Source: a virus. Taken from it: 38,485 nucleotides of DNA. Made by a program: the position numbers and the translations under genes. Of this stretch, positions 17,304-38,485 are shown piece by piece. The stretch lies in the UHGV virus genome UHGV-0171269; one strand, written 5' to 3'. The notes beneath the pieces were generated by a model that had not been told where the DNA came from, did not search any database, and worked only from the letters and a program-made list of their open reading frames with translations. Position 1 is the first letter of the stretch. Every line of letters begins with the position of its first letter.

Positions 17304-20300
17304 TTATTTGGTCTGCCAGCCGTTATCTTTGAGCTTCTTGTTAACTCGCCTAAGTTCCCGGGAAAGCCTTCTGTATTCTACGCTACGTTCGCCATAGGCA
17401 CTCTTGGCCTCACGCTTCTCTTTACGCAATCTGCGTGCGCTTTGCAATAGTTTTTCTCTGGTGTCGTAGAAGGGGTTGAGGTCAGACCTCGTAGTCTTGG
17501 CCGCATTGTGCGCTTGGAGAGTGGCATTGGACAAGGAGCTGATGACTTCAAACACACGTCCCACAGTTTTCGCATTGGCGATATTAGCTCCAAGGCCAAT
17601 CGTATCTCCCAGCGTCCGGCTAAGACCTGCCCCAACTTCAATCCATTCGTTTAGAGTCACGGCGTCCATGTCTTCCGTACTCTTCAATATAACTTCGTAA
17701 GCTTGGGAAAGGCCTCGTGCGGTTCTGCTAAAGTCCGTTAGCGTGTTAGGACGGGAGAAGACGTGCCCGCCTCCGAACGCATAGTAATCCAGCGCTTGGA
17801 ACAAACCTGCAAATACAGGGGTGGCGACAAGCGGGCCAAGAGACATGTTGAAGAGAATCGTTTCTGCCGAGAATTCATCATCGTTATAGCTCGTGAAGAA
17901 GGAAGCCGCCATGCCCGAAATGGTATTAGCAAAGCCAACGATAGTCCACATGCGGATGAAGTTGGCAAGCTTCCTCATGGAGCTAATGTCGCCACGCTTG
18001 AACTGGCTGAAAAGAAGAGCTGACTTGTTCAGCATGTCGCTCATGAACAAGACTTGGTAAGATTCGTAAGCTGATCCTCCAAGTGTGCCAATAGCTCTAG
18101 TAGATTGATTCTCAGGCTGGGCCGACTTTAGAATGTTAAGATTCAACTGGTCTATGATCTGCTCTTTCTTCAAGCCCCTATCATGCAAGATTTGCGCGGC
18201 CATCATGTTGCCACGCTTTACGCACCATAGGTCAAAGTCAATCAATGCCGAGTTGCCGCACTCCTGCCAGTACATGACCTGAGCCTGCTTCGTCTTTGGG
18301 GCGTCCATAGCGGCTTTGATTACCACCCTATCCTGATACGACAACGGGTTGCGAGCCTTCACGCCTTCCAGCTGGGCCATCTCTTGGAGAGAAATAGGCT
18401 GAGGGTTGAATAGCCAGCTACCCATGCTCTTTATAATCTCAAGACTGCTAAAGTCCGATCCTACCAACGGATTGAAGAACGCCGCACCGCTCCGGCAAAT
18501 GGAAGCCATAGAGTTAAAAATCTTCGTGCGGGCAAGAGTTCCAATCGCTTTGACGAAAAGCTCCCCGAATAATCCCTGCTGTGCGCGGATGCGTCCTTCA
18601 TTCAGGAAATTATAAAGGCCCTTGCTTGCCTGCTGGTAGTTCTCCTTGCCGATGACAAGCTGTATTTGTGCGGCCGTCTTCGTGTTCAGCCAAACTTTGT
18701 TGAAGTACTCATTCAATTCAAGGGAAGACATCCAGCCTTCCGCTATCTGAGCGTACCTTTCAAACTCCTGCACCGGATTTACCAGCATAGTTATTTCCGC
18801 AGAAGCCGGGGTGCTTCGCTTCTTCATGAAGGCGGGCTTGCCGGAATAAGTTATCTGCCCGGGAGTGTACCCTTGAGAATCATAGAACCCGTCCCCTAAT
18901 TGCCCCTCATGGGCCGTGGTGCGTGGAGTATAGAAGTCTTCCATCGTAGAGACCTGACCGAAGAAAGACTCTTCGATACTGGCCACCCTCTGGCCTAGTT
19001 CACGATACGCCGTCTGAATGGAGCGTGCCAAGAACAACCCGTCCGGACCAAGCGCATTAATAAGCGCCTCCTGATCTTTAGCGAGCCTATCCTGAAACGC
19101 TTCTTCTGCATTATCTACTTCTGCCTCATACTCATCTTGAGTTATCTCCTTATTGGAGAGCTGTTCGTCTAGCTGGGATGTGCGGCGCTCCAGAAGAGCA
19201 TAGTTCCCAAGATCAAGCTTGTAGTTGTTACGCAAGACTTTCACGCCATCAGACTCTTGCATGGTCTGATAAATCTTAATAAGCTGAGTCTTAACGTATT
19301 CTTCGCCCTTGAACTTAACAGGGGCGTTATTCATCTGATAGAAATGGCGCGCGATCTGAGTTGTCGAATCAGTGTTCTTGATCCCTGCCAGTTTTGCCGC
19401 ACCCTTAAGCCATGAAGAGATCATCGCATGCCGCTTCACCCGGGCATTGTCTCTCTGCATGGTTGCCCTCACTACCTCATTCAGCATGAAGTCACCGTTC
19501 CTTTTAAAGCCGGGCAGTGTTCCGAGGATTTCGGACAACTGAACAGTGGAAAGCATTCCTGTAAAGAAACTCTTTAACGAATTGTATTCTCCAGCTTCCT
19601 TGAGAAGATTTCTCAGATCATCCAGTTTCTTCTCTGTACCTACGGCCTTAGCTACTTCATCCTTAAACAGGTTAAGCTTCTGTTCGCGTCTCTCCAGCTC
19701 CTTCCTCCAGCGGAGCCGCCCCTCATCTTGAAGTTGCTTCAATGCGTCAAAAGCATTCTCCTGCTCTGCCAAGCTACGGACGAAGCTGTTCCCATCTTTG
19801 TAGAGAACAGAACCGAATGTATCAAGCAAGGAAATAGATTGCTGAATTTCTATTACTTGAGGATCATTCGGGTTTTGAGTCTTATTAACAGTTCTCTCAA
19901 GAAGGGCCTGCAATGCGTCTTGCTGGGCCTCTACCTTCTCTGGAGACATCTTCATCAGCTCCTCAACGGCAAGCGTGTTATAACGGCTCTGTGCGTCCAG
20001 CGTGGAGCTTACGCCCTTCCTATCTTTATAGGCTCTCTTTGCCAACCGCTCCAGCCCCTCGGTAGTCTTGACTTGTTGGGCCGCCTCAGCACGGAGCGCC
20101 GCCGCTTCTTCCTTGGAAGATTCTTTCAAGACCCTATCAACAATCTTCCTAACCTCACGTTGCGTACGGTTGAATTCGGCAGTTTGTATCTGGTTGTTGA
20201 TAGCTTTAACTCCACGGTCTAGCGCCGTTTGAAGGGCATTCTCAAATTGTAGTTGGCTCTTCGGGTTAGCTAGTGTTTCAGCTAATGGCCTTGGTATAAA

Positions 20301-23300
20301 TGATTTACCATAACGGCTAATAGCATTCTCAAGAGTAAGGACGCTGTTAAACAATGCCTTCTGCTGGCGCGCCTGAGAGAACTTCCCAGCTACTGCTTGC
20401 TCGGCAAGGCCCATGAAAGACTTGCGTATTGCCTTGAGACTGTTAATGGCCTGAGAAGAATTGCTCTCAAAGATATCTGCGATTGCCTTTTCAACGGTCT
20501 GGATGCCCGGACCTACACGCAAAGCGCTTGTTCTCTCCTGAACGGAAGGAAGGATCGCCGCCCCTGCCGCCTCATTAATCATGGACGCGATATCTCTGGC
20601 CTGCGTCTGGTCTGCCACATTAGCTAGAGACTGGGACCATTTAACAAAGTCTGCATCAAGAACTCCATCCTCAATGGCCTGCTTGATGCGCTGGCCTTCC
20701 TTAAAGATGTTGCCTACTTCCGCGATGTTGTCCTTCTGCCATTCAAGAATGCTCTGCACATCCCCGGGAAGAGTACCGAACAGTTCCGGGTTAGTGGCAA
20801 GCGCTTTCCCCATCGTGGCTAAGGCTTCTTGCAAGATAACATCGTCAGACAAGTTCCCAAAATCCCGGCCAGTGTACTCTCCATACTTGCGAATGGCGTT
20901 CTCAATATACTCCCGGGTGACTGCACCCGTGGCAAGATCATACGTCGCATTGGCATGGATGACTTCTTCCAGAATGTCTAGGGGATTGGCTCTCCCTTCG
21001 ATGACCGCTATTTGCCCAGCACGATACGCCGAAACAACCTCCAAATTATTAGCAACGTCCTCAACGGTAATTTCACCTGCATTGTATTGTTCTCGAAGTT
21101 CAGGGTTAGATTGAATGTAGGCTAGCGCCCTAGCCCTTGCCGTGGACTGGTTGATTCCTTCCGCATTCTGAATTGAGGAAAGAAGCTCGTCTTTGCTTAT
21201 CTCAATGCCTTGACTCTCAATGGCAGGTTCAAGCTGTCTCTGAGCAAATAGATTCAGGGCTTGCACAAAAGAAGGATTGGACGCCAGCGTCTCGGAAAGA
21301 TAAGTACCAGCTACTTCATCGGTGAGCGTCATAGTAGATTGCTGGCCGCTTTCAGGAGACGTCGTGGTGACGTCCCAAGTACCATCCCCGTTATCCTTGA
21401 ACGTGGGCATCAATTCCACATTCTTGAAAAGGTCGGCATTCTTCGCAACGAAATTCAGCATCGCGGCTGAACTGCTACCTACTGTTTCTGGCGACTGGTT
21501 TACATTGGTAGTATTAAAGAGCGCCTCCTGAATTAGGTTGGAGCGCTCCTTGCCGTCAGGCATAGTAGCAATCTGGTGGGCTACATCACTTTCAATGCCT
21601 AGGGCTATAAGAGCTTGAGGGCTTCTGCCTACCTTGTTAACCAAATGATTGGCTTGTACACCACCGAGCGCGCCCATAGAACCGCCAAGAACAACAGTAG
21701 GAATAAAGAATGCAGGGTCCAAAGGATTGTAATTCTCCCACCAGTCCCTAAGGGTATTCTGTTGAGTTAAATCTGCACCTAGGCTCCGGTAAAGATTTTC
21801 AACTCCAACATATACTGGGTCCGCAATACTTTCTTGTACGGTTTCCGTTAAAGCACCTGCCGCCCCAGCACGACCTATACGTGCCAATGTCGATCTTTCT
21901 GCTATAGCCTCAACTCCTCTTATCGCAGTAGAACCAAGTCCAGTAGCTCGTACTCCTTTAACTGCTAGACCACCAGTAGACATTGTGAGAGAATCAAGAG
22001 CGCCTTCTAGTGAGCCTACCGTTAATCCATACGCGATTGAACCTTCTCTACTAGAGTTTGATCTATAAGCATCGAGTCCGGCACTCGAGCCATAGACCAA
22101 TGAACCCATAGCTGTTGCTACGCTGTAAGTTGCAACTGGGTTCCTTGTTACAATTCCTGTAGATAAAGAAGACAAGCCGACGGCGGCAATTTTAGGAACA
22201 TTATCAACTAAGTTCCTGACCCCCATACCCCAATTGCTCTCAGGCATGTCTCGCATGGAGCGATATTCTTTCTGGATAGCTAGAGCAAGACGTTGAAATC
22301 TTTCTTCATCTTCGTCTTTCTCAGGAAGCATTCTTAAGAATGACCATATATCTTCATAGGTGTCGTTCAATGCTTGGACCAGCCATGCTCTATCGTCTTT
22401 GGGCAGAAATTCAGGAAGCATCTGAATAGCAATCTTGAACGAACCCGTATTCTCCCCAAGAGCTAGCAACCTGTCAGCCATCTTGTCCCAATCAAGGGAA
22501 CCCTCTTTTATATACTCATCCTTAATCCATGAAGTAGCTTCATATGCCGCTTGATATTGCGTCCGCAAATAAGGGGAATTGTTGAAAATGGAGCGTCCAT
22601 AAACTGAGTTAGGACCGAGAGAGTCAATGGCTTTCTCAAAGTCTCCTCCATTTTCCAAGAAGGCCGGAAGGAAATCTGCCTCTGCCTTGTAATATCCTTC
22701 CTTTACTTCATTTGCCCTCTTTAAATCTTGAGAGTACTTATTAATGACGCCATTGATGCTGTCCGTCTTATATTCCCTCATGAGAATAGCGGCGGCCATC
22801 TCATCAGAAATACTCATGTTAGGGAACTTCACTTCCTTGATAGCTCCGAAAAGCTCTCTCTCTTTCGTAGCTCGGTCAGCGCTATTCCAAGATGCTATCT
22901 GGTCAGCATTCAAAAGTTTCCCTAACTTATTATCGACAACTTCATCTGTATCAATATAACCGTAAAGTCCTTTTTCCGGTTGTATGTTTTGAGTTAATGC
23001 GGAGAATATAGCGTTGGTCCTCTCTACCTTCTCTCTCCTTAGCTCAAATGTAGGGTCAATCCCTCTCTTCTTCAAGGAATCATTAAGCCGAAGGATTTCA
23101 TCCATCATCGAGCTATCGAGAACATTGCTTTGCCTAAACTCCCGTTGAAGCTTTTTATAGGATTCCAAATCTTCGAGAGTTTCCCTACGCAAAGCATTTG
23201 CCCGACTCCCTAAGTAGTTAGCTCTTTCAGTTTCGCTAAGTTCTGCGTATCCCACTCCCTGCGCCCTGCGCTGTTCACGGGCGATAGCTTCTTGGTCGCC

Positions 23301-23393
23301 AGATATTCCAAGCGAAGGAATAACTGATTCATCCAAAGGAGGAGGAGTCACTCCTTCGTCATCAGGCAATACGGGTTCGATAGGCTCGTCCAT
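17304..23393 (-). CDS. Giant virion protein (2029 aa), a candidate internal-core / DNA-ejection protein comparable to T7 gp16
   Basis: One uninterrupted 6.09-kb ORF. Long coiled-coil-rich central region (E/K/Q/A/L). Position between the gp15-like protein and the fibre. Confidence 0.45.
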   Translation of the reverse strand: MDEPIEPVLPDDEGVTPPPLDESVIPSLGISGDQEAIAREQRRAQGVGYAELSETERANYLGSRANALRRETLEDLESYKKLQREFRQSNVLDSSMMDEILRLNDSLKKRGIDPTFELRREKVERTNAIFSALTQNIQPEKGLYGYIDTDEVVDNKLGKLLNADQIASWNSADRATKERELFGAIKEVKFPNMSISDEMAAAILMREYKTDSINGVINKYSQDLKRANEVKEGYYKAEADFLPAFLENGGDFEKAIDSLGPNSVYGRSIFNNSPYLRTQYQAAYEATSWIKDEYIKEGSLDWDKMADRLLALGENTGSFKIAIQMLPEFLPKDDRAWLVQALNDTYEDIWSFLRMLPEKDEDEERFQRLALAIQKEYRSMRDMPESNWGMGVRNLVDNVPKIAAVGLSSLSTGIVTRNPVATYSVATAMGSLVYGSSAGLDAYRSNSSREGSIAYGLTVGSLEGALDSLTMSTGGLAVKGVRATGLGSTAIRGVEAIAERSTLARIGRAGAAGALTETVQESIADPVYVGVENLYRSLGADLTQQNTLRDWWENYNPLDPAFFIPTVVLGGSMGALGGVQANHLVNKVGRSPQALIALGIESDVAHQIATMPDGKERSNLIQEALFNTTNVNQSPETVGSSSAAMLNFVAKNADLFKNVELMPTFKDNGDGTWDVTTTSPESGQQSTMTLTDEVAGTYLSETLASNPSFVQALNLFAQRQLEPAIESQGIEISKDELLSSIQNAEGINQSTARARALAYIQSNPELREQYNAGEITVEDVANNLEVVSAYRAGQIAVIEGRANPLDILEEVIHANATYDLATGAVTREYIENAIRKYGEYTGRDFGNLSDDVILQEALATMGKALATNPELFGTLPGDVQSILEWQKDNIAEVGNIFKEGQRIKQAIEDGVLDADFVKWSQSLANVADQTQARDIASMINEAAGAAILPSVQERTSALRVGPGIQTVEKAIADIFESNSSQAINSLKAIRKSFMGLAEQAVAGKFSQARQQKALFNSVLTLENAISRYGKSFIPRPLAETLANPKSQLQFENALQTALDRGVKAINNQIQTAEFNRTQREVRKIVDRVLKESSKEEAAALRAEAAQQVKTTEGLERLAKRAYKDRKGVSSTLDAQSRYNTLAVEELMKMSPEKVEAQQDALQALLERTVNKTQNPNDPQVIEIQQSISLLDTFGSVLYKDGNSFVRSLAEQENAFDALKQLQDEGRLRWRKELERREQKLNLFKDEVAKAVGTEKKLDDLRNLLKEAGEYNSLKSFFTGMLSTVQLSEILGTLPGFKRNGDFMLNEVVRATMQRDNARVKRHAMISSWLKGAAKLAGIKNTDSTTQIARHFYQMNNAPVKFKGEEYVKTQLIKIYQTMQESDGVKVLRNNYKLDLGNYALLERRTSQLDEQLSNKEITQDEYEAEVDNAEEAFQDRLAKDQEALINALGPDGLFLARSIQTAYRELGQRVASIEESFFGQVSTMEDFYTPRTTAHEGQLGDGFYDSQGYTPGQITYSGKPAFMKKRSTPASAEITMLVNPVQEFERYAQIAEGWMSSLELNEYFNKVWLNTKTAAQIQLVIGKENYQQASKGLYNFLNEGRIRAQQGLFGELFVKAIGTLARTKIFNSMASICRSGAAFFNPLVGSDFSSLEIIKSMGSWLFNPQPISLQEMAQLEGVKARNPLSYQDRVVIKAAMDAPKTKQAQVMYWQECGNSALIDFDLWCVKRGNMMAAQILHDRGLKKEQIIDQLNLNILKSAQPENQSTRAIGTLGGSAYESYQVLFMSDMLNKSALLFSQFKRGDISSMRKLANFIRMWTIVGFANTISGMAASFFTSYNDDEFSAETILFNMSLGPLVATPVFAGLFQALDYYAFGGGHVFSRPNTLTDFSRTARGLSQAYEVILKSTEDMDAVTLNEWIEVGAGLSRTLGDTIGLGANIANAKTVGRVFEVISSLSNATLQAHNAAKTTRSDLNPFYDTREKLLQSARRLRKEKREAKSAYGERSVEYRRLSRELRRVNKKLKDNGWQTK

Positions 23394-23394
23394 T

Positions 23395-25386
23395 TTATCT
23401 ATTCCAATAAGAGATCAAAGCTGAATATATAGCTTGTTCATCCTCGTCGCTCAAGCCGTTATTTACCCGGAGAATCCTAGCCCTTCTTTCCGCTTCATTA
23501 TCCATCGCGTCAGCAGAAGGCTTCTGCAAATAGAATTGACCTATTTCCAATAACTTTCTCGAACCTCCAGAAGATTTATACATATCCTTTGACAAGAGAG
23601 GCGTTTTAATAGGCTCTCCTGATGAAGAAGAAACTTCATAAATTGAACTGTTGGGAGTCCCAAGAGTCACGACAAAACCACCATTAGGCATCTCAGGAAG
23701 TTCCGTTTTATCTCCAAGGGTAAAGTTCTGATCTAATGCGATTACTCTGGTAGCGCTTTGCATAGGACCAACGACATCTTCTTCTTGCTGAAACGCCGAG
23801 AAGTAAGAAGTGACCCCCCTAGTGGGAATGCCTAATTCCTTTGAGACTTGAGAAATGGTATCAGCAAGAATCTTGTAACGCTCCTGTTCGGTCGGGGTCT
23901 TGCCGCCGTTCTGCCCCATGAAATCGTACACTTGCTGGGTCGCCTGTGCCCTGACTTGGCCGATGAAGTTCTTAAAGTTTGCATCGTTTTGAAGGTTAGG
24001 AATTTTCTCTCTAACTACATACCTCTTCGCCAAAGTTTCCGGGTCTTCATAGGCACGGCTTTCTGTCTTATCCAGATAATATTGCTTGTTCTTCCCAACA
24101 AAGCTATTATTAAACTCCGCCTCTGTCATGTAGATTGGGGTACCGTTCTTATCTACATAATCTTTCCCAGTATAAAGTGGATATTTGCCTGTGTCCCATA
24201 CCCGCTCAACCCACGTTTTCGCATCATCCAGATAGGAAGGCGGCGTGTGCGTCTTCATCAGGTTAATCAAAGACGTCTGATCGTTGGAAGAAAAGTTGGC
24301 TTGCTTTAACGTGGTTCTCAACTGGTTCTCCAAGTTGGCCCTTTGTTCTGGCGTGGCATTCTGGTAAGAAGGGATCATGCTCGCCGCATATTTACTAGCT
24401 CTAGCAAACTCGGCAGAAGTCGGAGGGATGTTCGCGGTATTCTGCTTGTACATCCTCCAAAGCGTAGCAAACTGCTGGGTATTAATGCCATTAACTTCCA
24501 ATGACTGCTTTGCCTGTTCAATGGAAAATCCTTCTGGAGCCAGCATGAACTGTTCAACAAGAGAGTTGTAGTTCTTCTTCTGGTCTTCATTGATAAAGGA
24601 CCGCGCCTGATTGATCCCGTATTGCTGTTGTTCGTAGGAAAGCGCTCTACCTCGAACAGACCCTTTCGTCTGGATTTCCTCGAGCAATCCATATGGGTTG
24701 GTCAAAGCCATTTGCTGGACCTCATCAGTAGTCCTCGCTTGGTCAATTGTGAAGTTAAGCTTCATCTTCTGAGCATCGCTAAGATAAGGAGTCTCTTCCG
24801 TGATGCGTGAAGCTTCATCAAACTGCCCGCTTTTAATCGCAATATCAATAGCGGCATTAGTTTCGTCAGCCGCCATCTGTGAGACACGTAGCGCCGCAGT
24901 CCTAGCAACCTGCACCGCCTCTTTAGCTTTGATCTGATTCAAGGCTTCATCGGTCAGCAATCTGTTCTTGCCGACCAAGAAAGCGCCGTCAAACCTAGTA
25001 TTAATATCTTCTTGAGCTAAGGCCATCCTCTCCTGATAAACCTGAGTCCACATGCTCGGCTTGTTCATGTATTCAGGATCGGTAGATAAAGACGAAATGA
25101 TCTTAGCAGAAGCATTTGTAAGCTCAGCCTGCATGCGCCTAGACATGATACTGTCGTTAACCGTCTCAACTTCTGCCTTGGCTTTCCCGATTAAGGAGAG
25201 ACCTTCTGTTAAATTCCTCGCCGCACGATTGCTTGTCTCCGCATTAAATTCACTGCCGATCGGAACAAAGCGCGACACATCGCTTTGCCCCGTAGAAGCA
25301 TAACGATTGTCCGGTGACCCCGGCATCGTTGCGTTTCTCGCCTGACTCGGAACTCCAAGACGAATGTTTCTTGTATCTTCTGCCAT
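23395..25386 (-). CDS. Internal virion protein (663 aa), gp15-like by position
   Basis: ORF track. Tightly coupled to neighbours with a 1-nt gap on each side. Confidence 0.4.
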   Translation of the reverse strand: MAEDTRNIRLGVPSQARNATMPGSPDNRYASTGQSDVSRFVPIGSEFNAETSNRAARNLTEGLSLIGKAKAEVETVNDSIMSRRMQAELTNASAKIISSLSTDPEYMNKPSMWTQVYQERMALAQEDINTRFDGAFLVGKNRLLTDEALNQIKAKEAVQVARTAALRVSQMAADETNAAIDIAIKSGQFDEASRITEETPYLSDAQKMKLNFTIDQARTTDEVQQMALTNPYGLLEEIQTKGSVRGRALSYEQQQYGINQARSFINEDQKKNYNSLVEQFMLAPEGFSIEQAKQSLEVNGINTQQFATLWRMYKQNTANIPPTSAEFARASKYAASMIPSYQNATPEQRANLENQLRTTLKQANFSSNDQTSLINLMKTHTPPSYLDDAKTWVERVWDTGKYPLYTGKDYVDKNGTPIYMTEAEFNNSFVGKNKQYYLDKTESRAYEDPETLAKRYVVREKIPNLQNDANFKNFIGQVRAQATQQVYDFMGQNGGKTPTEQERYKILADTISQVSKELGIPTRGVTSYFSAFQQEEDVVGPMQSATRVIALDQNFTLGDKTELPEMPNGGFVVTLGTPNSSIYEVSSSSGEPIKTPLLSKDMYKSSGGSRKLLEIGQFYLQKPSADAMDNEAERRARILRVNNGLSDEDEQAIYSALISYWNR

Positions 25387-31433: not shown

Positions 31434-31602
31434 GATTTTAATTCTTGATTAAACGTACCGCCTCGAAGAAGATTTGCGTCTTGCATCAGGCAGGTATCCT
31501 AATCAGGGCTGTCTGTGTGAACGGCGGTGGTTCACGAAACTGTTTGAACAAGTGTCCGTCCGGGTTGTTCAAGCCAAAACAAGCACACATCACATAACAT
31601 TG

Positions 31603-31641
31603 CAACAAAAAACCCCGCACTAATAAAAATATTAGTGCGGG
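31603..31641 (-). terminator. Minus-strand intrinsic terminator-like hairpin in the capsid leader
   Basis: Stem CCCGCACTAATA / TATTAGTGCGGG with an AAAA loop. On the minus strand it is followed by TTTTTTGTTG. Confidence 0.55.
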
Positions 31642-31730
31642 TAAAACAAAGAAGAAATAACAATGAACTATAGAATGGCGCGTCCTTTCACAAGGAGACC
31701 CACATGTGTTACTACGTATTGCTTAATATT

Positions 31731-31776
31731 TCAATAAAGAAACCTTCCTCCGCATCAATTAAAACACGGAGGAAGG
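31731..31776 (-). terminator. Second minus-strand hairpin, a terminator or RNA-processing candidate
   Basis: Stem CCTTCCTCCG / CGGAGGAAGG (10 bp) with a 14-nt loop. On the minus strand it is followed by TTTCTTTATTG. Confidence 0.45.
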
Positions 31777-31836
31777 AGAACATACACGTAGTTAAGCCAC
31801 TAACTCATGTGGTAATGTAACGACGACTGAGAAACA

Positions 31837-32760
31837 TTACCATTGAACGTGCGTAGATGCAAGCCGATTATATTCCTCCCTCGCATCTTTTGGCATCCGG
31901 TCCAAACTTCCGTATTTGGAAATCATGTCAATCATGCGTTGCTGGGCACTCGTCCCTGATTGGGACCTCATCACTCCCGGAGTAGGCATCGTCCCTTCCT
32001 GATACCTTGCCGCCTTTTCGTACAAGGCTTCCAAGATATATGGGTTATTGAGGGCCATCGCAAAAGAGCTATCATCAACGTCAATCCCCGCATCGATCAA
32101 GCTCTGCCGAAGGATTGTTGCGTTGCGTTCATACTGCGGCCCCCATTCCTTCCTGAAATGCTCCTGAGCCTGCTTGGAAGCTTCTTCCACTCTCCTTACA
32201 AACTCTTCATTGTTCTTGCGGTAAAGCGTATCTTGATAGCGCAGAAGCTCCTGTGCCGTCTCAGCCGGGATGTTGTGCTTATGGGCAAACGCCGCAAACT
32301 CTTTAAAGCTCGCCTCGTCATAATTGTCCTTATACTCATCAGGAATCTGGTACCCATCAACATTGTCAGGAACGCCAATGTAGGAGCGCCATGCTTTAAT
32401 CTCTTCCTCACTGGCCCCTTCTCCCGGCTTCTTCACGCCGTCGAACTTCTTGCCAATTAACTGGTTGGCATTCACAAAGCCTTTCACCAGTTCATCAACA
32501 TTCTTGTACTTCCCTAGAGAGTCGGCACCTTCAAACTTGGAAGTCCACCCTTCCTTGAAAGAGCCATCCTCGCCGATAATATCAGCCACCTTAAATGCCT
32601 GCTGTTGCGTATCAGTCGGGGCCGGGCTTGTATCGAGCTTCATCGTACCCGGCATCTGCATCTGCTGTGCAGGCTGGGTAGTTTGCGTGGCGGGGGCGGC
32701 GCTCCCTGTCGTGGTGGTAGGGGCCTGACCCCCTGCATTATTTGGATTGCTATCAATCAT
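31837..32760 (-). CDS. Scaffolding protein (307 aa)
   Basis: Acidic, Q/T/A-rich low-complexity N-terminus. Sits between portal and capsid. Same length as T7 gp9. Confidence 0.5.
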   Translation of the reverse strand: MIDSNPNNAGGQAPTTTTGSAAPATQTTQPAQQMQMPGTMKLDTSPAPTDTQQQAFKVADIIGEDGSFKEGWTSKFEGADSLGKYKNVDELVKGFVNANQLIGKKFDGVKKPGEGASEEEIKAWRSYIGVPDNVDGYQIPDEYKDNYDEASFKEFAAFAHKHNIPAETAQELLRYQDTLYRKNNEEFVRRVEEASKQAQEHFRKEWGPQYERNATILRQSLIDAGIDVDDSSFAMALNNPYILEALYEKAARYQEGTMPTPGVMRSQSGTSAQQRMIDMISKYGSLDRMPKDAREEYNRLASTHVQW

Positions 32761-33056
32761 TTTCCTGCTAGGTATTTTATTAATTCAAGCACTTGGCGCG
32801 CTCCTGATATGAACATTGCTCTGTTCGCATCAAAGTCTGCAAGCAAGGGGGCTTCCTTCTTCACATGTTCTTTATCACACAAAGAAAGGTCAACCATTGT
32901 AGTAAGATAAAAGAGCAAGCGATTGGTTAATTCGGACCCCTTAAATTCTTCCCGGAACCGGATAAAATCTTCCTCCGGCACTTTGCTTACATTTCCGAAG
33001 AAGTCATAAACCTTTAATGCCTTCTTCTTGTTTTTATCATCAGTAGTTATTTCCAT
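32757..33056 (-). CDS. Hypothetical protein (99 aa) between portal and scaffold
   Basis: ORF track. ATGA overlap with the scaffold gene. Confidence 0.4.
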   Translation of the reverse strand: MEITTDDKNKKKALKVYDFFGNVSKVPEEDFIRFREEFKGSELTNRLLFYLTTMVDLSLCDKEHVKKEAPLLADFDANRAMFISGARQVLELIKYLAGK

Positions 33057-33059
33057 AAA

Positions 33060-34679
33060 TCATCGCATGTTCCCTATAGCGCTTCCAATGTTCTTCTGGA
33101 TTTCAGAAGCTTCAAGAGCATTAGCCATCTGATTGGCCCCCTGTTGCGCCGCTTCTCTTTCTTTAATAAGACGGTCAACCTTCGCTTTATCCTTGAGTAT
33201 CTTGGTCGGCATCCCAATAGATTTAATCCCTGACCTCATGATAAAATCAGTATCAAAGCTAATCATCACATCAGGATCAATCTGAGCCAAAGGAATCGCA
33301 ATCGTCTGCATGAACTCGGAGAATAGCGTCGGCTGGTGACGGTCCAAAAGCATTTGGAAAGGAGTCGTAAACTTGATGCTAAAATCATCCAGCGCAGGAA
33401 CAAGCTTCTCATCTCGAAGAAGCTCATAGCAACGCATCACTACAGGCTGTAGGAACTCTTCCGTCAACCTAGTGTAGGCAGGGGAAGCAATCCTCGCAGA
33501 ATACGCTTCGATCATCTGCGCCACCGTCGCCTTCATGTATTGAGGGTCTTTGACCTGCAACAACGGCGCAAACAAATCCATGTCGCATGTCTTCTGAATG
33601 TTGTTCTCAAGCCTCTGCACCTGCCATTGCATCTCATTAGCCTGCATCATGTTCTGGAACAAGGGCGTCGGCTTGGCCTGAACGTTCATCGGGTTGAAGG
33701 TTGTCACCCCGCCAAACCCCCAGTCAATGTTCCCATCAAATCCTTCCGGCACCAGCATCGGCGGGAATATCTTCTGCATGGCCGATTCGCTCAACGCCTT
33801 AACGGAGTTGGTCAATTCGGTCTGGTCCCCTAATGCCCTCAAACCAGCACCAACTCCATAAGGAGAGTTGGCAATATCAAAATAGTTTGAGACGCTCACA
33901 GGGCTTGTCCAAAAATACTGCGTCGCCAGAACATCTCCTGACTGGTCAAACACGCTACGCATCACCCACGGCCTGCCATTAGCCTCTTTAATCAGCTTCT
34001 CGTCTCCCGTCCTCTCCACCTTCTCCAGCAAATGGAACACAAGATAGTTGTCAGGATTTACACTGCTCGCCTGATATTTCTCCTTCACCATGTCAGGCAG
34101 TACATTCTCCGGGAACGTCGCGACAATGTCCTGTATCCTCAACCACTCATCCCAGCAAAACGTATGGACATTCCCAAACTTGTCCCTGTCCACCATGAAA
34201 TCCCCTACAGGAATATGCGCAAATTTCAGCATCCCTCGCACCTTGTCCCATTCGGACCAGAAGGCCGCCTGACCGTAAGCCGCACGATCAAAGTAAAAAA
34301 GCTCGGAAGCCGTGTGGAAGTTGCTGTTGCGCATAAACCACGCAACCTGCCTCCCTGTCTCATAATAAATGTTCTCAATCGTGCTATCAATCTGGCTCTG
34401 ATCGTCGATCTTGGCCAATGGCTCAAAGCTAAACCATCCCTGACTCTTGGGCGTTATAAGCTCATGCTGGCCAGCCGCATTTACCCTCAAAGCCCTTTCA
34501 AGCGTCTGGTCCAAATAGCCAAGGTCCGTCCCAGTAGATTGATAAACCGCACCGTTAATGTTGAACTTCTTCTCAGGATCAACGTATTGCGCGATCCTCT
34601 GCCAGTTGCTCACGTACCGCTGGCGGAAAGCATACAAATCCGCATGCTTCTGCTTGGCATCTTGTTTGTTGGTAACCAT
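33060..34679 (-). CDS. Portal protein (539 aa)
   Basis: Size and its position downstream of the large terminase and upstream of scaffold/capsid. AGGT SD-like element upstream. Confidence 0.6.
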   Translation of the reverse strand: MVTNKQDAKQKHADLYAFRQRYVSNWQRIAQYVDPEKKFNINGAVYQSTGTDLGYLDQTLERALRVNAAGQHELITPKSQGWFSFEPLAKIDDQSQIDSTIENIYYETGRQVAWFMRNSNFHTASELFYFDRAAYGQAAFWSEWDKVRGMLKFAHIPVGDFMVDRDKFGNVHTFCWDEWLRIQDIVATFPENVLPDMVKEKYQASSVNPDNYLVFHLLEKVERTGDEKLIKEANGRPWVMRSVFDQSGDVLATQYFWTSPVSVSNYFDIANSPYGVGAGLRALGDQTELTNSVKALSESAMQKIFPPMLVPEGFDGNIDWGFGGVTTFNPMNVQAKPTPLFQNMMQANEMQWQVQRLENNIQKTCDMDLFAPLLQVKDPQYMKATVAQMIEAYSARIASPAYTRLTEEFLQPVVMRCYELLRDEKLVPALDDFSIKFTTPFQMLLDRHQPTLFSEFMQTIAIPLAQIDPDVMISFDTDFIMRSGIKSIGMPTKILKDKAKVDRLIKEREAAQQGANQMANALEASEIQKNIGSAIGNMR

Positions 34680-34680
34680 C

Positions 34681-34965
34681 TTATTGACCTAATGCGCTTT
34701 TGCCACTTACCCCGCTACCTGCCCCCAAGGCGTTCTTGCTCGCAACAAAGGTTCCTCCAAAGGAACTACGGCGCCTGTTCTCACGTATCTTGTTCTCCGT
34801 GCCAGACGTATCGACTGTTACCTCATTCACTGGCTTCTCAGGAGCAGGAGCATCCATCCCCTCCTTGTTCTGCTTCAAGCCTAATACGCCTCCAACGATA
34901 TTAGTAACACCTTTGAACACGCCGCTAATAGCGTTGCCTATCTCTTTAAACGGATTGCCGCCCAT
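34681..34965 (-). CDS. Small Gly-rich protein (94 aa)
   Basis: ORF track. Stop 1 nt before the portal start. Confidence 0.4.
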   Translation of the reverse strand: MGGNPFKEIGNAISGVFKGVTNIVGGVLGLKQNKEGMDAPAPEKPVNEVTVDTSGTENKIRENRRRSSFGGTFVASKNALGAGSGVSGKSALGQ

Positions 34966-35380
34966 GATTTTTTCCCTTTCCTAATAATTTAATTAGCAAT
35001 TCAACTTCTTTTCTCCCGTACAGATACACATTCCCCGCACGAAAGCCAATAAAATATTTCATCCTCTCCTCTTTTATCATCCATCTTAACAACACTCTAA
35101 AATCTCCAACCCCTAAATAAAAGAAGAACCCATTCGCATCATGACGGCTACATGATAACGAAGGAACGCACGCCTGCTTCACCCTAGACCAGCATTCCTC
35201 CACATCAGCCCACCCATCTTCCATCCTAAAGAAATGCCCCATCACAAGGCATCTATCATCCCATCGCCGATATAAATAACGATGCTCCTCCCAAGACGCA
35301 TCAAAATCCGCGCCTAAAGCTTTCAGGACCGCGCGCCCCTCCTCTCCTAGACATGAGGCCTTCATAGTTGTTTCTATCAA
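34946..35380 (-). CDS. Hypothetical protein (144 aa) overlapping the 3' end of the terminase gene. Start uncertain.
   Basis: ORF track. Overlaps the TerL C-terminus by 80 nt, so an internal start may be the true one. Confidence 0.3.
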   Translation of the reverse strand: MIETTMKASCLGEEGRAVLKALGADFDASWEEHRYLYRRWDDRCLVMGHFFRMEDGWADVEECWSRVKQACVPSLSCSRHDANGFFFYLGVGDFRVLLRWMIKEERMKYFIGFRAGNVYLYGRKEVELLIKLLGKGKNHGRQSV

Positions 35381-36920
35381 TATTTAAATTGCTAAAGTTC
35401 CGGCCAAAGCTCTTCTTTACATGCGTCTCTCCTCCTCCACTTACATTCCCAAGCAAACCAGCCATCCGAGCCTCAGCTATGTATCTCAACGAATCACTCC
35501 AATGCGACGAACTATCATGCACGATCTCGTTCTTATAGGCCCCATTCTCTCCAAGCGCTGGCTTCATCCTGTAGCTTAACCAATACGGATAAGCCTTCTC
35601 CGTCCCCCCTATATCAAATCTCAATAAAGGGAACATCCCTAGCAAGTAATTGATACTTATCCATTTATCTCTTATTCTAGGCAAGCATACTATCCCCGGC
35701 AACCCAGCCTGTTGCCACATGTACGCCTGACTTAAACCCGTATCCGTCGTGTACCCAGCATCATGCGGAAATATGTTCCGCATCAAGGTAGGAAATCTAC
35801 TCAACAACCGAGCCGTCCTCTGCGCCGGACCCTCACTGCTATATTGGCCGCAATCGCTATCAACTATCCATATCAACCCCTCCTTCAACTGGAACACCGT
35901 CGAAACCGTATTCAACGGATTCCCCAAGTCCCATGTCGCATAACACGGCAATGTCGGATCATATGGCGCATGCAAAAAATGACCATCCCTCATCGACGCC
36001 TCAAGAACTTCCTCCAATATCGCACCTTCCATCGGCACCTCAAACGCCTCGTCAAGCGTAGAAGGGTATTCCTCGTTCATCGATAAGCCATGTTGCCTCT
36101 TCGCCTTCTGCCACCAAACCTTCTGCCTGTCTTCCAAGTCGATCCCATATTTCGCCTTCAACGTCGTAAAGTAACTCTTCGTACTCTCCGTCAACGGCTC
36201 ATCATCATCACTAACATTGCTCTCATCTTCCCACCACGGCAAAAATACAACGTTAAAGTCCTTCTCCCCCCTATGCCCCTCTTCTATCGATAACGCATTC
36301 ATCACGTTCTCATAGAATATCCCCTTCTTCCCCCCTCTTACTGTCGTCTCAACAAAAATAAATCCATCCTTCGCCGCAGGAAACGTCGCATTCACTATCT
36401 CCGCCGCCCTCTTCGGCTCCGTCGCACTTATCGTTCCCAACTCCGATATGTGCGCAAACCCCAAACCACTGCCCCTAAAGTATTTACCACCAACTATACG
36501 GCTCGACTTCCTACCAACCATCTCCACCGTAATCATCTTGTTGTTAAATTCCATCTTAAACAACCAAGGCAATTTCCTCCTCAAACTCTCCAACGCAACC
36601 CTCACTATCTCCCTCAACTTCTCCTCAGCATCAGGTTGCGTCCTGTCAACCAACGCCAATAACCACCCCTCATTAAACGCCGCCATGTCCGCCATCATCA
36701 CACCAATACACGTACTACACCCCTGACGACGCGACTTCGGCACCAAAAACCTCTTCTTCCCCCTCAAATAACACTCCTCATGCAACCTACGCTGGAATTC
36801 CCTAGGCTCATATCTAATCACTCGACCATCCGTCAACTTGATCTCATACAAGTTGCTCAGCCTCCACATAGGGTCTTTCAACCTTTCCAATAACAATCTC
36901 TTCTCTTCCGAACTTAACAT
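35301..36920 (-). CDS. Terminase large subunit (539 aa)
   Basis: Walker-A-like VPKSRRQGCST, acidic FLPWWEDE, a C-terminal nuclease-like region. Sits before the portal. Confidence 0.7.
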   Translation of the reverse strand: MLSSEEKRLLLERLKDPMWRLSNLYEIKLTDGRVIRYEPREFQRRLHEECYLRGKKRFLVPKSRRQGCSTCIGVMMADMAAFNEGWLLALVDRTQPDAEEKLREIVRVALESLRRKLPWLFKMEFNNKMITVEMVGRKSSRIVGGKYFRGSGLGFAHISELGTISATEPKRAAEIVNATFPAAKDGFIFVETTVRGGKKGIFYENVMNALSIEEGHRGEKDFNVVFLPWWEDESNVSDDDEPLTESTKSYFTTLKAKYGIDLEDRQKVWWQKAKRQHGLSMNEEYPSTLDEAFEVPMEGAILEEVLEASMRDGHFLHAPYDPTLPCYATWDLGNPLNTVSTVFQLKEGLIWIVDSDCGQYSSEGPAQRTARLLSRFPTLMRNIFPHDAGYTTDTGLSQAYMWQQAGLPGIVCLPRIRDKWISINYLLGMFPLLRFDIGGTEKAYPYWLSYRMKPALGENGAYKNEIVHDSSSHWSDSLRYIAEARMAGLLGNVSGGGETHVKKSFGRNFSNLNIDRNNYEGLMSRRGGARGPESFRRGF

Positions 36921-36939
36921 ATCAACCCCTAATCCTTTA

Positions 36940-37437
36940 CTATCTAACTATCTCTCTCATCTCAAACTCAACCGCCTGCCAGTCAACATTAACGTGCGGA
37001 CCAATCGCCTCTTTGCTCATAAATTTCCACGCAAACAACACCAAATCTGTACTATCCCTACCTCCATACTTCTTATACAACCACCTAGCCTTCCCCTTAA
37101 TCCGGTACTTCGTCCTGCTCCGCAATACATAAAACTTACACGTCTCCTCTCCATCAACCACATCATCCCCAGCAGAAACCCCAGCAGGCCTAATCCCATT
37201 CAGGTTCTCAACTCCCCTCAGCTTAGAACCCTCATAAACCAATTTATATTTCTTACTCAAATACCTCTTCTTCTCTTCCAATTTCCCGTCCCTCTCGTAT
37301 ATGTCATACGCCCTCCTAACATTCAAACTACATCTCCCGTACTTCTTCCACCCCATCAGCAAGTAATACAACTCCTGCTCAAATTTCCTAACTCCCTTCC
37401 CCTCTACCTCCAACCGCGCCTCATTACTTATCCCCAT
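36940..37437 (-). CDS. Candidate terminase small subunit (165 aa)
   Basis: Lies directly upstream of TerL. K/R/G/E/Y-rich with almost no CCN or CAN codons, giving a G-free plus strand. Confidence 0.35.
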   Translation of the reverse strand: MGISNEARLEVEGKGVRKFEQELYYLLMGWKKYGRCSLNVRRAYDIYERDGKLEEKKRYLSKKYKLVYEGSKLRGVENLNGIRPAGVSAGDDVVDGEETCKFYVLRSRTKYRIKGKARWLYKKYGGRDSTDLVLFAWKFMSKEAIGPHVNVDWQAVEFEMREIVR

Positions 37438-37924
37438 AATTCCCCCCTTTCAACAATTCACTAAGCTCACTCCCCATCTCCTCTTCACTACCCCCTCCAT
37501 TCCCAAGCCATCCCTTCATCCTTATAAACATGCTCAACGCCTGCAACTGGTCCTTCCCACTCACTCCTTCCCCCCTACCCATCTTACTCAACAACCGCTC
37601 CACCTCTCCCCTACTCAACACACCAACTTCTCCATCATCCACTAAATCCATACCCAGCTCCTCCTTCAACATCTCTAACAACTCCCCCTCATTCCTCCTC
37701 ATACCATCCTCAAAATATTCATCTCTCTCCCCTAACAAATCTGTACTAATCTCACCATAGCTCTTCCTCCCCAACAACACCAACAACATTCCTCTCAACT
37801 CCACCATCCCTACCTTCAACCCATAACCAAGCCTCTCTAACTCCTTCTCCCTCTCTTCACTCTCATCACACTCCAACAACCAGACAATATGCCTCTCAAG
37901 CTCTTCCGATAATTCTTCTCTCAT
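37424..37924 (-). CDS. Glu/Leu/Gly-rich low-complexity protein (166 aa), the first gene of the leftward arm
   Basis: ORF track. Extremely C-depleted coding strand. Confidence 0.35.
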   Translation of the reverse strand: MREELSEELERHIVWLLECDESEEREKELERLGYGLKVGMVELRGMLLVLLGRKSYGEISTDLLGERDEYFEDGMRRNEGELLEMLKEELGMDLVDDGEVGVLSRGEVERLLSKMGRGEGVSGKDQLQALSMFIRMKGWLGNGGGSEEEMGSELSELLKGGNYGDK

Positions 37925-38211
37925 CTCAAAAACATATATAAATCATCCTCTCATCATTGTCTATGCTTTTTTCCCATAAAGCCCCAACACAACAAAACTA
38001 CAAATCCTCTCCTATACTCTACATATACTATACTCCATCTCTTTTCTCAGATTTTTCTTACACGAGGTACCCTTCTTCGTGCGCTTGACGCCGCCGCCGC
38101 TTTTCTCCCGCCGGCCCCCTCGAGACCCCCTCCAGTGGTCCCCCTAGGGGTGGGGTTATCGTCTCGGCTACGCTAAGAGGGGTGAGCTGGAGAGGTCGAG
38201 CGTCAGGCATT

Positions 38212-38240
38212 GCGGTGCGTGGTGCGTGGTGTTGCGTGGT
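38212..38240. repeat. Iteron-like tandem heptamers GCGGT-GCGTGGT-GCGTGGT-GTT-GCGTGGT
   Basis: Read directly. Confidence 0.8.
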
Positions 38241-38401: not shown

Positions 38402-38485
38402 ATGAAAGTGACCATTAACAAACTAGCATCAAAGCGCCTCTTAGAGGCATTTGCCAAAGTCGGAGCTTGCAGGACCGAGGAGCAA
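38402..38485 (+). CDS. 5' part of an ORF that runs off the window end and matches the frame of 1..243
   Basis: ATG 38402 followed by 28 sense codons to the window end with no stop. No SD upstream, so the start is uncertain. Confidence 0.3.
   Translation, partial: MKVTINKLASKRLLEAFAKVGACRTEEQ

Follow-up and report, generated by a model that had tools for sequence, protein, structure and literature searches.

The window, by which we mean the whole stretch of 38,485 nt analysed from the virus genome UHGV-0171269, that of a human-gut phage, carries two oppositely oriented operons whose sense strands are poor in cytosine and rich in guanine behind their predicted starts. The minus-strand operon, L1, is bounded by terminators and runs from 38050, a start predicted from sequence, to 31610. 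The plus-strand operon, R1, is likewise terminator-bounded and runs from about 2450 to 4500, with a predicted start that is ambiguous. The following features are referred to below, by coordinates and strand:

1–2287, plus strand: most of operon E, which starts at 38404 and crosses the window junction; terminator at 2253–2287
2339–2471, plus strand: R1 control region, with a TTGACA box (2339–2344), a G8 run, GGGGGTCTGGAG (2385–2399) and the box GAAGAAGAGTA (2461–2471)
2449–2970, plus strand: R1 leader of about 500 nt, G-rich and C-poor, with skew up to +0.83
2971–4430, plus strand: R1 genes of 154 aa and 320 aa, without assigned function; skew 0.6, falling to 0.2–0.35
4452–4507, bidirectional: intrinsic terminator closing R1 and the converging IstB-like operon
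31614–31776, minus strand: two tandem intrinsic terminators (31776–31743 and 31641–31614) closing L1 ahead of the capsid gene
31610–35549, minus strand: L1 gradient tail, with small ORFs, the portal gene and a scaffold-like gene; skew from about 0.45 to baseline
33060–34679, minus strand: portal, T7-type Head-tail_con; 4-fold sites C 15%, G 41%
35301–36920, minus strand: large terminase subunit (TerL); 4-fold sites C 5%, G 56%
35550–38049, minus strand: L1 core zone, about 2.5 kb from the predicted start, sense strand nearly C-free; 4-fold sites C 0–3%, G 50–63%
36940–37437, minus strand: L1 gene 2, 165 aa, a TerS candidate by position alone
37424–37924, minus strand: L1 gene 1, 166 aa, acidic, kept in relatives (L012 7501–7935, L005 8463–9032)
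38057–38078, minus strand: L1 promoter-like segment, with the box GAAGAAGGGTA (38078–38068) and a −10-like TGTAAG (38062–38057)
38079–38160, minus strand: conserved GC-rich upstream element of L1 with G clusters, containing the palindrome CCCCTAGGGG (38150–38141)

A box of the form GAAGAAGRGTA is common to both zones, each of which begins at a promoter-like site; GGGGGTCTGGAG of the R1 control region is also present upstream of L1. At the place of the L1 promoter-like segment, relatives carry TGGACA-17-CATAAT or TGGACA-17-TGTAAT, and the core of the upstream element, GGGAGAAAA...GGGTA, is still recognisable in relatives with 50% TerL identity. The final sense-strand C of the L1 start region lies at 38050 and is followed by a C-free run of 68 nt; the G-rich stretch extends partly upstream of the −10-like hexamer. 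No conserved ORF was found in the R1 leader. Shine-Dalgarno sites are strong, the sole hint of a Bacillota host; the host search gave no prophage or lysin match among GTDB representatives.

The cytosine-poor zones are real and far beyond chance. Sense-strand C amounts to 3% over 37424–38052, with 20 plus-strand G in total in 37424–38060, and GC skew peaks at 0.93. In 200-nt windows the plus-strand skew is −0.81, −0.93 and −0.81 across 37401–38000 and has relaxed to about −0.2 by 34000. The background between 7000 and 33000 has a mean of −0.02, an sd of 0.13 and a range of −0.39 to +0.41 (521 windows), so the peak lies about 7 sd out and the zones fall far outside the range of the remaining genome. 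The counts given in the sequence-only reading were reproduced: one G in 60 nt at 37441–37500, and 13.1% G against 39.3% C at 36000–36060. The weaker rightward mirror on the opposite strand, from about 2450, was confirmed as well, with a skew of +0.61 over 2380–3440, +0.31 over 3468–4430 and a peak of +0.83 at 2601–2800.

At synonymous 4-fold sites of L1, the C content stays at a plateau of 0–3% over 2.5 kb, then declines in bias to about 13–25% C out to 5 kb and reaches baseline past 7 kb. The bias had been described as mild by the portal and capsid genes; this is correct for the capsid gene, which lies past the L1 terminators at baseline composition, but the portal gene is still skewed. Sense-strand G in the zones is 33–47%, and GC content inside them, 44–51%, matches the remaining genome. 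TC is the most depleted dinucleotide.

No such zone is present in operons L2 (18.5 kb, from capsid to lysis), R2 and E, where C content is normal and the purine bias no more than ordinary. The sense strand is purine-rich in every operon (52–57%), and reaches 60–64% in the zones. The two biased units had been taken to diverge from one control region, which is not the case, as a 2.7-kb operon with ordinary G/C balance (38404 to 2227) lies between them. In this operon E, G and C are balanced, sense-strand purine richness is achieved via A, and C exceeds G in the distal genes; the operon provides an internal control without a C-free zone.

The encoded proteins are reshaped by the bias, as had been proposed. 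L1 gene 1 consists to 64% of E/L/G/R/K, and its P0, H1, Q2, T1 and A1 together make up 3% of residues. L1 gene 2 contains P2, H1 and Q2. No match to gene 2 was found in Pfam, PHROG or NCBIfam, and a full HMMER search gave seven matches, none of them in a named family; its homologues are few, and the four full-length ones that were aligned are each equally biased in composition.

For comparative analysis, relatives were drawn from IMG/VR. The skew bias is present with a sharp onset in 19/19 of them (TerL identity 63–100%), and its decay against distance, window by window, looks closely similar in both lineages. In this window the endolysin gene lies 24 kb from the start and has 4-fold composition A21 C21 G25 T33; in the relative L012 it lies 1.7–2.2 kb from the start and has A34 C7 G53 T6, with 54% identity between the two proteins. 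TerL skew is lower where 1.55 kb of extra genes put TerL farther from the start. Because the orthologous endolysin and TerL genes change with distance from the start, composition is set by position and not by gene, which bears out the proposed tie to transcription-unit starts. A horizontally acquired island was considered and rejected, as it had been in the sequence-only reading: GC content is normal, and composition follows position in these two orthologues.

The alphabet of the zone differs between lineages. L012 and L008 are without T as well (A 30–45, G 53–67, C 0–7, T 0–10), and the zone sense strand of L012 is 80% purine. Only the rise in G and the fall in C are constant across three lineages; A and T vary. 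In co-linear relatives with 50% TerL identity, skew is about 0.5 over at least 19 kb, and just 0.1–2.5% of windows genome-wide have C>G; judged from composition, these phages are predicted to be Rho-blind throughout their genomes.

Deamination had been offered as one possible driver. The non-template strand, single-stranded during transcription, in an R-loop or during replication, would suffer C→U and A→I deamination. In the window lineage, L036 and L039, both transition biases do run in the expected direction, and G/(A+G) of 0.76–1.0 with C/(C+T) of 0.04–0.3 leaves third codon positions mostly G or T. In mitochondrial DNA, a deamination gradient likewise extends from a fixed point. However, T is not gained in the zone and GC content is not lowered, while purines at 4-fold sites increase from about 42% to 60–77% and G/(A+G) climbs to 0.76–0.84. 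In the same zone the sister lineage has T at 0–10% and A at 30–45%, the reverse of the deamination product. Polymorphisms point the same way: C>T per C site is alike in zone and distal sequence (4.8% and 4.9%), T>C is depleted (1.4% of T sites in the zone vs 3.9% distally, p=0.027), and the C<->T share of SNPs is 12% in the zone vs 43% distally (p=5e-6). The constant GC content, the gain of purines, the exclusion of T in one lineage and the depletion of T→C argue for selection over deamination, and we regard mutational decay as quite improbable.

Selection could act on the DNA itself. A C-free strand holds no recognition site containing both G and C, so the zones might provide generic restriction avoidance for the DNA that enters first, or else Chi-like protection of virion ends near the packaging start. 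In the L1 core, palindromes containing G/C fall from 37–38 to 23 per kb for 4-mers and from 8.0 to 4.4 per kb for 6-mers, the terminase genes lie inside the zone, and several IMG/VR contigs end 50–300 nt upstream of the L1 start. The 4-mer count is nevertheless what composition predicts (58 observed vs 60.4 expected), which gives no support to the earlier suggestion that C-containing target motifs in double-stranded DNA are avoided. For 6-mers, 11 were observed against 16.3 expected, but the observed/expected ratio is 0.61 in L2 and 6-bp palindromes are avoided genome-wide to that degree, a cheaper route to the same end. In addition, the control region adjoining the L1 zone is rich in palindromes, a Chi-type over-represented oligomer was not found, and R1 has no link to packaging. 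A DNA-level device of this kind is very unlikely.

Another of the earlier suggestions, that G-quadruplexes are selected for in the RNA or the non-template strand, would suit the high sense-strand G content. The canonical motif (G3+N1-7 x4) occurs on neither strand of the whole window, though, while shuffles expect 1.5 in the L1 core; G3+ runs are below those of one shuffled copy, with 31 vs 50 runs of exactly three G. This reading is close to refuted and we give it almost no weight.

R-loop promotion was weighed at greater length. G-rich, C-free transcripts would form persistent RNA:DNA hybrids with the C-rich template, priming or opening the DNA for forks that leave the region between L1 and R1, or serving some other function. 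As in R-loop-forming CpG-island promoters and immunoglobulin switch regions, the skew begins at promoters and runs for kilobases. A QmRLFS-like scan placed a G-cluster initiation zone at 38144, with G making up 40% or more of the next 800 nt, a fit that requires transcription to start upstream of 38144; in R1 the elongation zone is 100 nt. The difference between hybrid and duplex energy (hybrid minus duplex), estimated with nearest-neighbour parameters, comes to −0.14 to −0.17 kcal/mol/bp for the zone vs about −0.03 distally. The zone is confined to two outward-pointing operons, and the skew changes sign at the palindrome 38150–38141 (switch at 38146), with the cumulative GC-skew minimum near 38000; both of the latter follow from divergent transcription alone as well. 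An iteron-type origin was not found elsewhere, and the phage encodes an IstB/DnaC-like loader without a polymerase or primase. Near the switch, the only repeats are short GGTGCGT copies at 38214–38240, which are not conserved in L006, and the composition profile showed no conspicuous AT-rich unwinding element. Against R-loops, free sites in the window lineage and in L036 carry T in preference to A, although rU:dA forms the weakest of the hybrid pairs; G runs cluster less than they do in shuffled sequence; and L1 is translated densely from +128 on. Priming takes tens to hundreds of nt, not 2.5–6 kb, and the skew of co-linear relatives spans at least 19 kb. We hold R-loop promotion to be unlikely.

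The pressure may instead come from an attack on cytosine or from CTP limitation, in which each C in early RNA or exposed non-template DNA would be a liability. Chain terminators of the ddhCTP type, a cytidine deaminase or a C-specific RNase might be responsible, and the liability would end once a counter-measure encoded by the first genes acts. C is purged almost completely at synonymous sites (0–3% over 2.5 kb), which suggests a cost per site and not a threshold, and the decay appears to track distance, hence time, from the start. Both operons open with small, fast-evolving genes without assigned function, gene 1 being very acidic, and TC depletion would also fit. However, C content is normal in operons E, R2 and L2, the capsid gene included, T is purged in the L012 lineage to the same extent as C, the trinucleotide ACA is not avoided, and the first genes showed no homology to defence or anti-defence genes in searches. 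A pressure of this type is rated as distinctly improbable.

The reading we favour, tentatively and at slightly short of an even chance, is that the zones are an extreme, position-graded form of the purine/G bias by which transcripts avoid Rho, kept by selection on the non-template strand. The zones would be a composition programme anchored at two promoters of one type: from the L1 and R1 starts C is excluded and G loaded, and in the sister lineage all pyrimidines are excluded, which would keep the nascent RNA from use by the termination factor Rho. Rho requires long stretches that are C-rich, G-poor and pyrimidine-rich. Since termination near the 5′ end would cost the entire operon, the pressure ought to peak there and weaken on the way to the terminator of that operon; the antisense RNA, being its complement, would turn into an ideal Rho substrate. 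The layout of the zones, their conservation, their tie to position and the marks of selection are shown, whereas a role for Rho, the points where transcription starts and a host of Bacillota type that uses runaway transcription are inferred.

In B. subtilis, RNA with excess C and high T is terminated by Rho, a purine bias lets genes avoid Rho, and recoding genes with synonymous codons gives rise to Rho termination; phages are mentioned by the authors as facing the Rho barrier (Dierksheide, Taggart, Johnson & Li, Nat Microbiol 2026, PMC13323073). Rho avoidance was absent from the causes listed in the sequence-only reading, although this direct experimental precedent exists. A rut site, by published definition, is a C>G bubble containing YC repeats (PMC9160355). 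Over the initial 3.5 kb of L1 and the initial 1.5 kb of R1, C exceeds G in none of the 78-nt windows, and YC dinucleotides number 0.6–1.2 per 100 nt in the zones vs 11–13 at baseline. The antisense strand has C>G in every window of the zones. The sign of the bias goes with transcriptional direction and is mirrored between the two operons. The lineage comparison, with high G and low C as its constants, corresponds to what determines a Rho target, namely 'excess C' and T-richness.

Several points speak against Rho. The model gives no reason why only L1 and R1 need extra protection, and a purge of C to 0–3% at 4-fold sites exceeds what a threshold trait like Rho loading should need. The start sites on which it relies are predicted from sequence, R1's is ambiguous, and the G-rich stretch of L1 begins partly upstream of the −10-like hexamer. 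The decay, moreover, seems to track absolute distance from the start and not the remaining operon length, which a simple polarity-cost model does not predict. A dedicated device would account better than a threshold trait for the near-total purge at synonymous sites, for the confinement to two operons with one type of promoter and for a distance profile that is fixed. It is conceivable, though unlikely, that Rho avoidance is not the whole story and that the clade's near three-letter alphabet (A, G, U) is such a device for counter-defence or R-loop replication. It may cover the first kilobases of selected operons and, in co-linear relatives, whole genomes (skew about 0.5). Possible forms are an answer to an attack aimed at cytosine in nascent RNA or exposed non-template DNA, and R-loops of kilobase length from which replication starts.

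Should the Rho reading hold, transcription termination would have set a 'hidden' nucleotide code of which the zones are the strongest natural example, and which phages tune locally, per operon, by promoter distance. Sense-strand composition would then be a readable marker of phage operon structure and might aid in predicting the host type of uncultured phages (Rho-positive, runaway transcription). Were the agent something other than Rho, an undiscovered cytosine-directed pressure on phage transcription or replication would be at work. Natural experiments are ready, with the same endolysin and terminase genes at differing distances from the start, and the three lineages with different alphabets ({G,T}, {G,A} and genome-wide skew) offer a quantitative test of how RNA is read by Rho or another agent.

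Several known systems resemble the zones in part. Szybalski's transcription-direction rule, or 'purine loading', describes a purine and G excess on the mRNA-like strand, first noticed in phages, with dC-rich clusters on the template strand and classical skews of about 0.05–0.2 that are roughly uniform along genes. The phage zones load purine and G on the same strand, but the classical skews have neither a start-site gradient nor the near-loss of one base. As in R-loop regions (CpG-island promoters, switch regions) and R-loop-primed origins (ColE1 RNA II, T4 oriF/oriG, mtDNA CSB II, herpesvirus oriLyt), the non-template strand is G-rich from the promoter on a kilobase scale and transcription diverges around a skew switch; unlike these, the phage zones are translated coding sequence with dispersed G and with U over A at free sites. 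Replication asymmetry and the mitochondrial deamination gradient share the mirror sign change, the gradient from a fixed point and, in two of three lineages, G+T-rich third positions. They differ in that the phage skew has a far larger amplitude and comes with a gain of purines, that T is excluded in one lineage, that the onset is at promoters and that the extent matches operons.

Anti-termination devices (lambda N and Q, HK022 put RNA, P4 Psu) also carry polymerase through a long operon, as the zones would if the Rho reading is right. These are dedicated proteins or RNA acting on RNA polymerase or Rho, whereas the phage device would be bulk composition; homologues of such factors were not found. 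The zones also resemble the Rho-avoidance bias of the B. subtilis type (PMC13323073), in which the sense strand has C below G and is pyrimidine-poor, the antisense mirror is Rho-prone, the bias is written mainly in synonymous sites and amino-acid choice (E over D), and its direction follows transcription. Compared with B. subtilis genes at about 54% purine (PMC13323073), the phage zones reach 64–80% purine with GC skew of 0.6–0.9, and their bias is local to two promoters and graded over 2–6 kb, or genome-wide at about 0.5 in the co-linear relatives.

The window spans the complete genome (about 38.5 kb, circularly permuted) of an uncultured human-gut phage that is podovirus-like. Its gene content includes TerL, a T7-type portal (PF12236), a capsid protein (PF19821), tail proteins and an Amidase_3 lysin, as well as RuvC, an exonuclease, an IstB/DnaC-like loader, a Dam-like methylase (8120-8959) and a dcm-type C5 methylase (10618-11868). 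A 108-aa ORF crosses the junction (38404-38485 joined to 1-243) and the same gene is called in relatives, so the window is a circular assembly cut at an arbitrary point. Public assemblies contain the identical TerL in 283 indexed blocks, for the most part on contigs of 37-38.5 kb; ERZ1026977 and SAMEA2338722 are examples of gut samples with this phage. Among 50,697 phage records no close isolated phage was found (best TerL match 31% identity), the GTDB representative genomes gave no host match with the TerL profile or the endolysin, and Rfam and tRNA scans detected no RNA genes in the window. The strong AGGAG ribosome-binding sites would fit a Bacillota-like host.

Within the tail/ejection module lie a 2029-aa ORF (17304-23393, minus strand) and a neighbouring 663-aa ORF (23395-25386, minus strand). 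The former had no significant Pfam, PHROG or PDB sequence match, with a SHOCT match only below threshold, and the latter no match in Pfam or PHROGs. By position both resemble the ejected internal-core proteins of T7-like phages, and an enzymatic role, for example as a virion RNA polymerase, is conceivable. Gene 1151-1531 carries at its 3' end a perfect 30-nt tandem duplication (1468-1527), so that the peptide NGDATIICDL occurs twice. Among the relatives, the assembly of locus L020 (18062-21605) fuses phage structural genes to bacterial ornithine/lysine decarboxylase and amino-acid permease genes, and in L021 the phage is located within a 235.8-kb contig; these are either chimeric assemblies or integrated copies.

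Two cytosine-poor, G-loaded zones had been described by the sequence-only reading as a single divergent pair. They are in fact kept apart by a G/C-balanced operon (E), and the transcription units were delimited as follows.

38404 to 2227, plus strand: operon E
2253-2287: hairpin terminator, closing E
about 2450 to 4500, plus strand: operon R1, a leader of about 500 nt without conserved ORF, then two genes without assigned function
4452-4507: bidirectional terminator, closing R1
38050 to 31610, minus strand: operon L1, with gene 1 (37424-37924), gene 2 (36940-37437), TerL (35301-36920), two small ORFs, portal (33060-34679), a 99-aa ORF and a 307-aa scaffold-like gene
31776-31743 and 31641-31614: strong tandem pair of L1 terminators, directly ahead of the capsid gene

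The left zone corresponds to the 5' portion of L1, the right zone to operon R1. The skew itself was confirmed, and the spot-check numbers of the earlier reading were reproduced exactly. Plus-strand GC skew per 200 nt over 37401-38000 was -0.81, -0.93 and -0.81, against a mean of -0.02 (sd 0.13) elsewhere in the genome, and only 20 G were counted on the plus strand in 37424-38060. The mirror zone peaked at +0.83 (2601-2800) and averaged +0.61 (2380-3440). In both zones GC content was constant at 44-51% and AT skew near zero. The gene 1 protein has P, H, Q, T or A at 5 of its 166 residues. At 4-fold sites (synonymous codon positions free for any base), C was 0-3% and G 50-63% within 2.5 kb of the L1 start; C rose to 13-25% between 2.5 and 5 kb, and to the baseline of 22-28% beyond 7 kb. 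Decay over all sites was fitted by 0.93 exp(-d/2170 nt) in L1 and 0.80 exp(-d/1026 nt) in R1, and the 18.5-kb capsid-to-lysis operon (L2) was at baseline composition.

The exact box GAAGAAGRGTA has two copies in the whole window, at 2461 (plus) and 38078 (minus), each slightly upstream of a zone; GGGGGTCTSGAG is likewise shared by the two. In relatives, the L1 box is part of a good promoter (TGGACA-17-CATAAT or TGGACA-17-TGTAAT), and the -10-like hexamer in the window is TGTAAG (38062-38057). The final sense-strand C is at 38050 and is followed by 68 nt without C, so that the C-free stretch would begin at the predicted start site. Another 100 nt upstream, the sign of the skew flips at the palindrome CCCCTAGGGG (38150-38141), which is conserved. 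Since the consensus RNA fold of the conserved upstream element reached only -4 kcal/mol, the element does not resemble a structured RNA and was treated as a DNA signal. Direct alignment of the L1 and R1 leaders was uninformative, yielding just short shared boxes. Short direct repeats at 38214-38240 (GGTGCGT x2.6 and GTGGTGCGTG x2.2) lie in the interval from the skew switch to the E promoter boxes. These repeats, not conserved in the relative L006, may be of an operator or iteron type. Four IMG/VR contigs (L001, L003, L004 and L013) stop 50-300 nt upstream of the L1 start, inside the GC-rich control element; this may mean either that assembly broke off where composition is extreme or that the DNA really ends there.

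Opposite 4-fold usage (C 24-40%, G 9-18%, A 34-39%) was observed in the distal E genes (1151-2227, plus) and in the IstB-like operon (4502-5543, minus). The excess of C over G on the sense strand of the latter had been taken to mean that the skew ignores gene orientation; this was withdrawn because the bidirectional terminator at 4452-4507 stops R1 before that operon, and because the plus-strand distal E genes share its C-rich, A-rich usage. In the 180 nt from the L1 terminators to the capsid start codon (31434-31613, minus), neither a recognisable sigma-70-type promoter nor a clear Shine-Dalgarno sequence was found, although the capsid gene encodes the virion's most abundant protein. For gene 2, structure modelling gave a poor result (pLDDT 61.6).

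A sharp onset (skew 0.8-0.9) followed by decay was present in 19 of the 19 IMG/VR loci (TerL identity 63-100%). In the lineage at 65% TerL identity, 1.55 kb of additional L1 genes lie upstream of TerL, and window by window the profile of skew against distance reads closely similar to that of the window. Averaged over its windows, TerL skew is about 0.28 in the 65% lineage versus about 0.47 in the window lineage, matching the greater distance. In the same lineage the Amidase_3 endolysin sits inside L1, 1.7-2.2 kb from the start, with 4-fold composition A34 C7 G53 T6. The window's orthologue, 54% identical and at a distance of 24 kb, reads A21 C21 G25 T33; the share of C-dependent amino acids is equal in the two. 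The gene has changed place between the lineages: in L012 (8948-9577) it is at the head of the packaging operon, and in the window (13526-14110) at the remote end of the late region. As the composition of both genes shifts with distance, it follows position and not the gene. Orthologues identical in protein but normal in composition had been named by the sequence-only reading as what would count against it, and the endolysin comparison came out in its favour. The TerL amino-acid shift between lineages was in the expected direction (41 vs 27) but not significant (p=0.11). The divergent unit of the 65% lineage relatives is purine-rich at its start too.

Deamination of the exposed strand, one of the causes suggested earlier, predicts a gain of T, a fall in GC and a fixed purine:pyrimidine balance, and all three predictions fail. 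GC content holds steady; at 4-fold sites T shows no change (25-40% vs 34-38%) and purines climb from about 42% to 60-71%. For the two-fold codons of the zone, G/(A+G) reaches 0.76-0.84. In the 65% lineage both pyrimidines are excluded from 4-fold sites (A 30-45, G 53-67, C 0-7, T 0-10), and among obligatory pyrimidines C/(C+T) is roughly normal from about 1.5 kb on (0.20-0.28 in the first two genes of L012), which together lie beyond the reach of any transition bias. Polymorphism was assessed in 11 genomes of 94-98% identity, a small set polarised by allele frequency only. In the first 1.6 kb, T>C affected 1.4% of T sites versus 3.9% distally (p=0.027), T>purine 7% versus 1% (p=1e-5), and C<->T made up 12% of SNPs versus 43% (p=5e-6); C>T per C site was equal (4.8% vs 4.9%), contrary to deamination. 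The comparison of minor with major alleles was balanced (X>C 11, C>X 12), and the per-site rates alone were informative. These data favour purifying selection against C. A mutational contribution to the skew is improbable.

A protein search recovered TerL homologues at 50-52% identity in two further genomes, L036 (NCBI GCA_964448375.1, contig CAYVAI010000001.1, 243.8 kb) and L039. Both (1-21530 and 1-14632, respectively) are co-linear, with a single-strand gene layout, and their sense strand is skewed at about +0.5 for 19 kb or more in L036 and for 12 kb or more in L039. Third codon positions in L036 are nearly all G or T, with G/(A+G) of 0.9-1.0 and 4-fold ranges, once the two initial genes and two less-biased ones close to DnaB are set aside, of G 55-81, T 11-34, A 1-8 and C 2-12. 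L039 shows a weaker form (G 29-56, T 26-43, A 9-16, C 3-18; G/(A+G) 0.85-0.98). The DnaB gene is much less biased in both, as if recently acquired. Lying within a 243.8-kb contig, L036 may be a prophage and could then point to the host. The clade thus has three free-site alphabets, {G,T}, {G,A} and genome-wide {G,T}, and the sole constant across the three lineages is that G is up and C down.

Other candidate functions were examined as well. The earlier proposal of G4 formation found no basis, with zero canonical motifs in the whole window and G runs less clustered than in shuffles. Avoidance of C-containing motifs fared no better: palindromes in the zones occur at the frequency expected from composition, and the neighbouring control region abounds in them. 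Genome-wide, 6-bp palindromes with G/C are under-represented (148 observed vs 243 expected in L2), an avoidance achieved through other means. No Chi-like motif was found, the k-mer search gave no dominant oligomer, SD-like and GGA-like regulatory RNA motifs were just slightly above expectation, and MazF-type ACA avoidance was absent. A cytosine-directed pressure behind the zones is improbable. Sense RNA near the start folds weakly: per 150 nt the window gives -17.5 kcal/mol, L012 and L008 give -7 to -9, and the baseline is about -38. The genome-wide-skew relatives do not show this. Promotion of R-loops by the zones is unlikely, if a little less so than a cytosine-directed pressure. The RNA:DNA hybrid is predicted to be modestly favoured (-0.14 to -0.17 kcal/mol/bp), the predictor fires for L1 only with a transcription start upstream of 38144, and U exceeds A at free sites in two lineages, contrary to optimisation of hybrid stability.

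The feature is real, conserved and position-dependent, and is best read as being under selection. Avoidance of the termination factor Rho is its likeliest function, a reading held tentatively and preferred because it alone fits the three-lineage constant (G up, C down, A/T free) and has experimental precedent. Rut sites have been described as 'C>G bubbles', rich in C and poor in G, that carry YC repeats (PMC9160355). Across the initial 3.5 kb of L1 and the initial 1.5 kb of R1, not one 78-nt window has C>G. YC dinucleotides in the zones are 10-20 times below baseline, and TC is the most depleted dinucleotide; the antisense RNA of the zones is C-rich in every window and almost unstructured. Three points are unexplained by Rho avoidance, namely the restriction of hyper-protection to L1 and R1, the purge of C to 0-3%, past a merely safe level, and a profile that seems to track absolute distance from the start. 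Owing to these gaps, R-loop promotion, cytosine-directed pressure and a mutational contribution stay alive as rivals.

No description of promoter-anchored, near-complete C exclusion in a phage was found in the literature search. The closest precedent for Rho avoidance is a 2026 study of B. subtilis, in which Rho terminates nascent RNA having a long C-over-G excess and high T, and, since RNA polymerase runs ahead of the ribosomes, genes rely on purine bias to escape (PMC13323073). That bias is lost in lineages without rho, Rho termination arises upon synonymous recoding, and according to the authors the barrier applies to foreign elements such as phages (PMC13323073). The zones are an extreme new form of this transcription-direction purine loading, or Rho-avoidance bias: B. 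subtilis genes are 54% purine and every operon of this phage is alike at 52-57% of the sense strand, whereas the zones are higher at 60-64%, and reach 80% in the 65% lineage.
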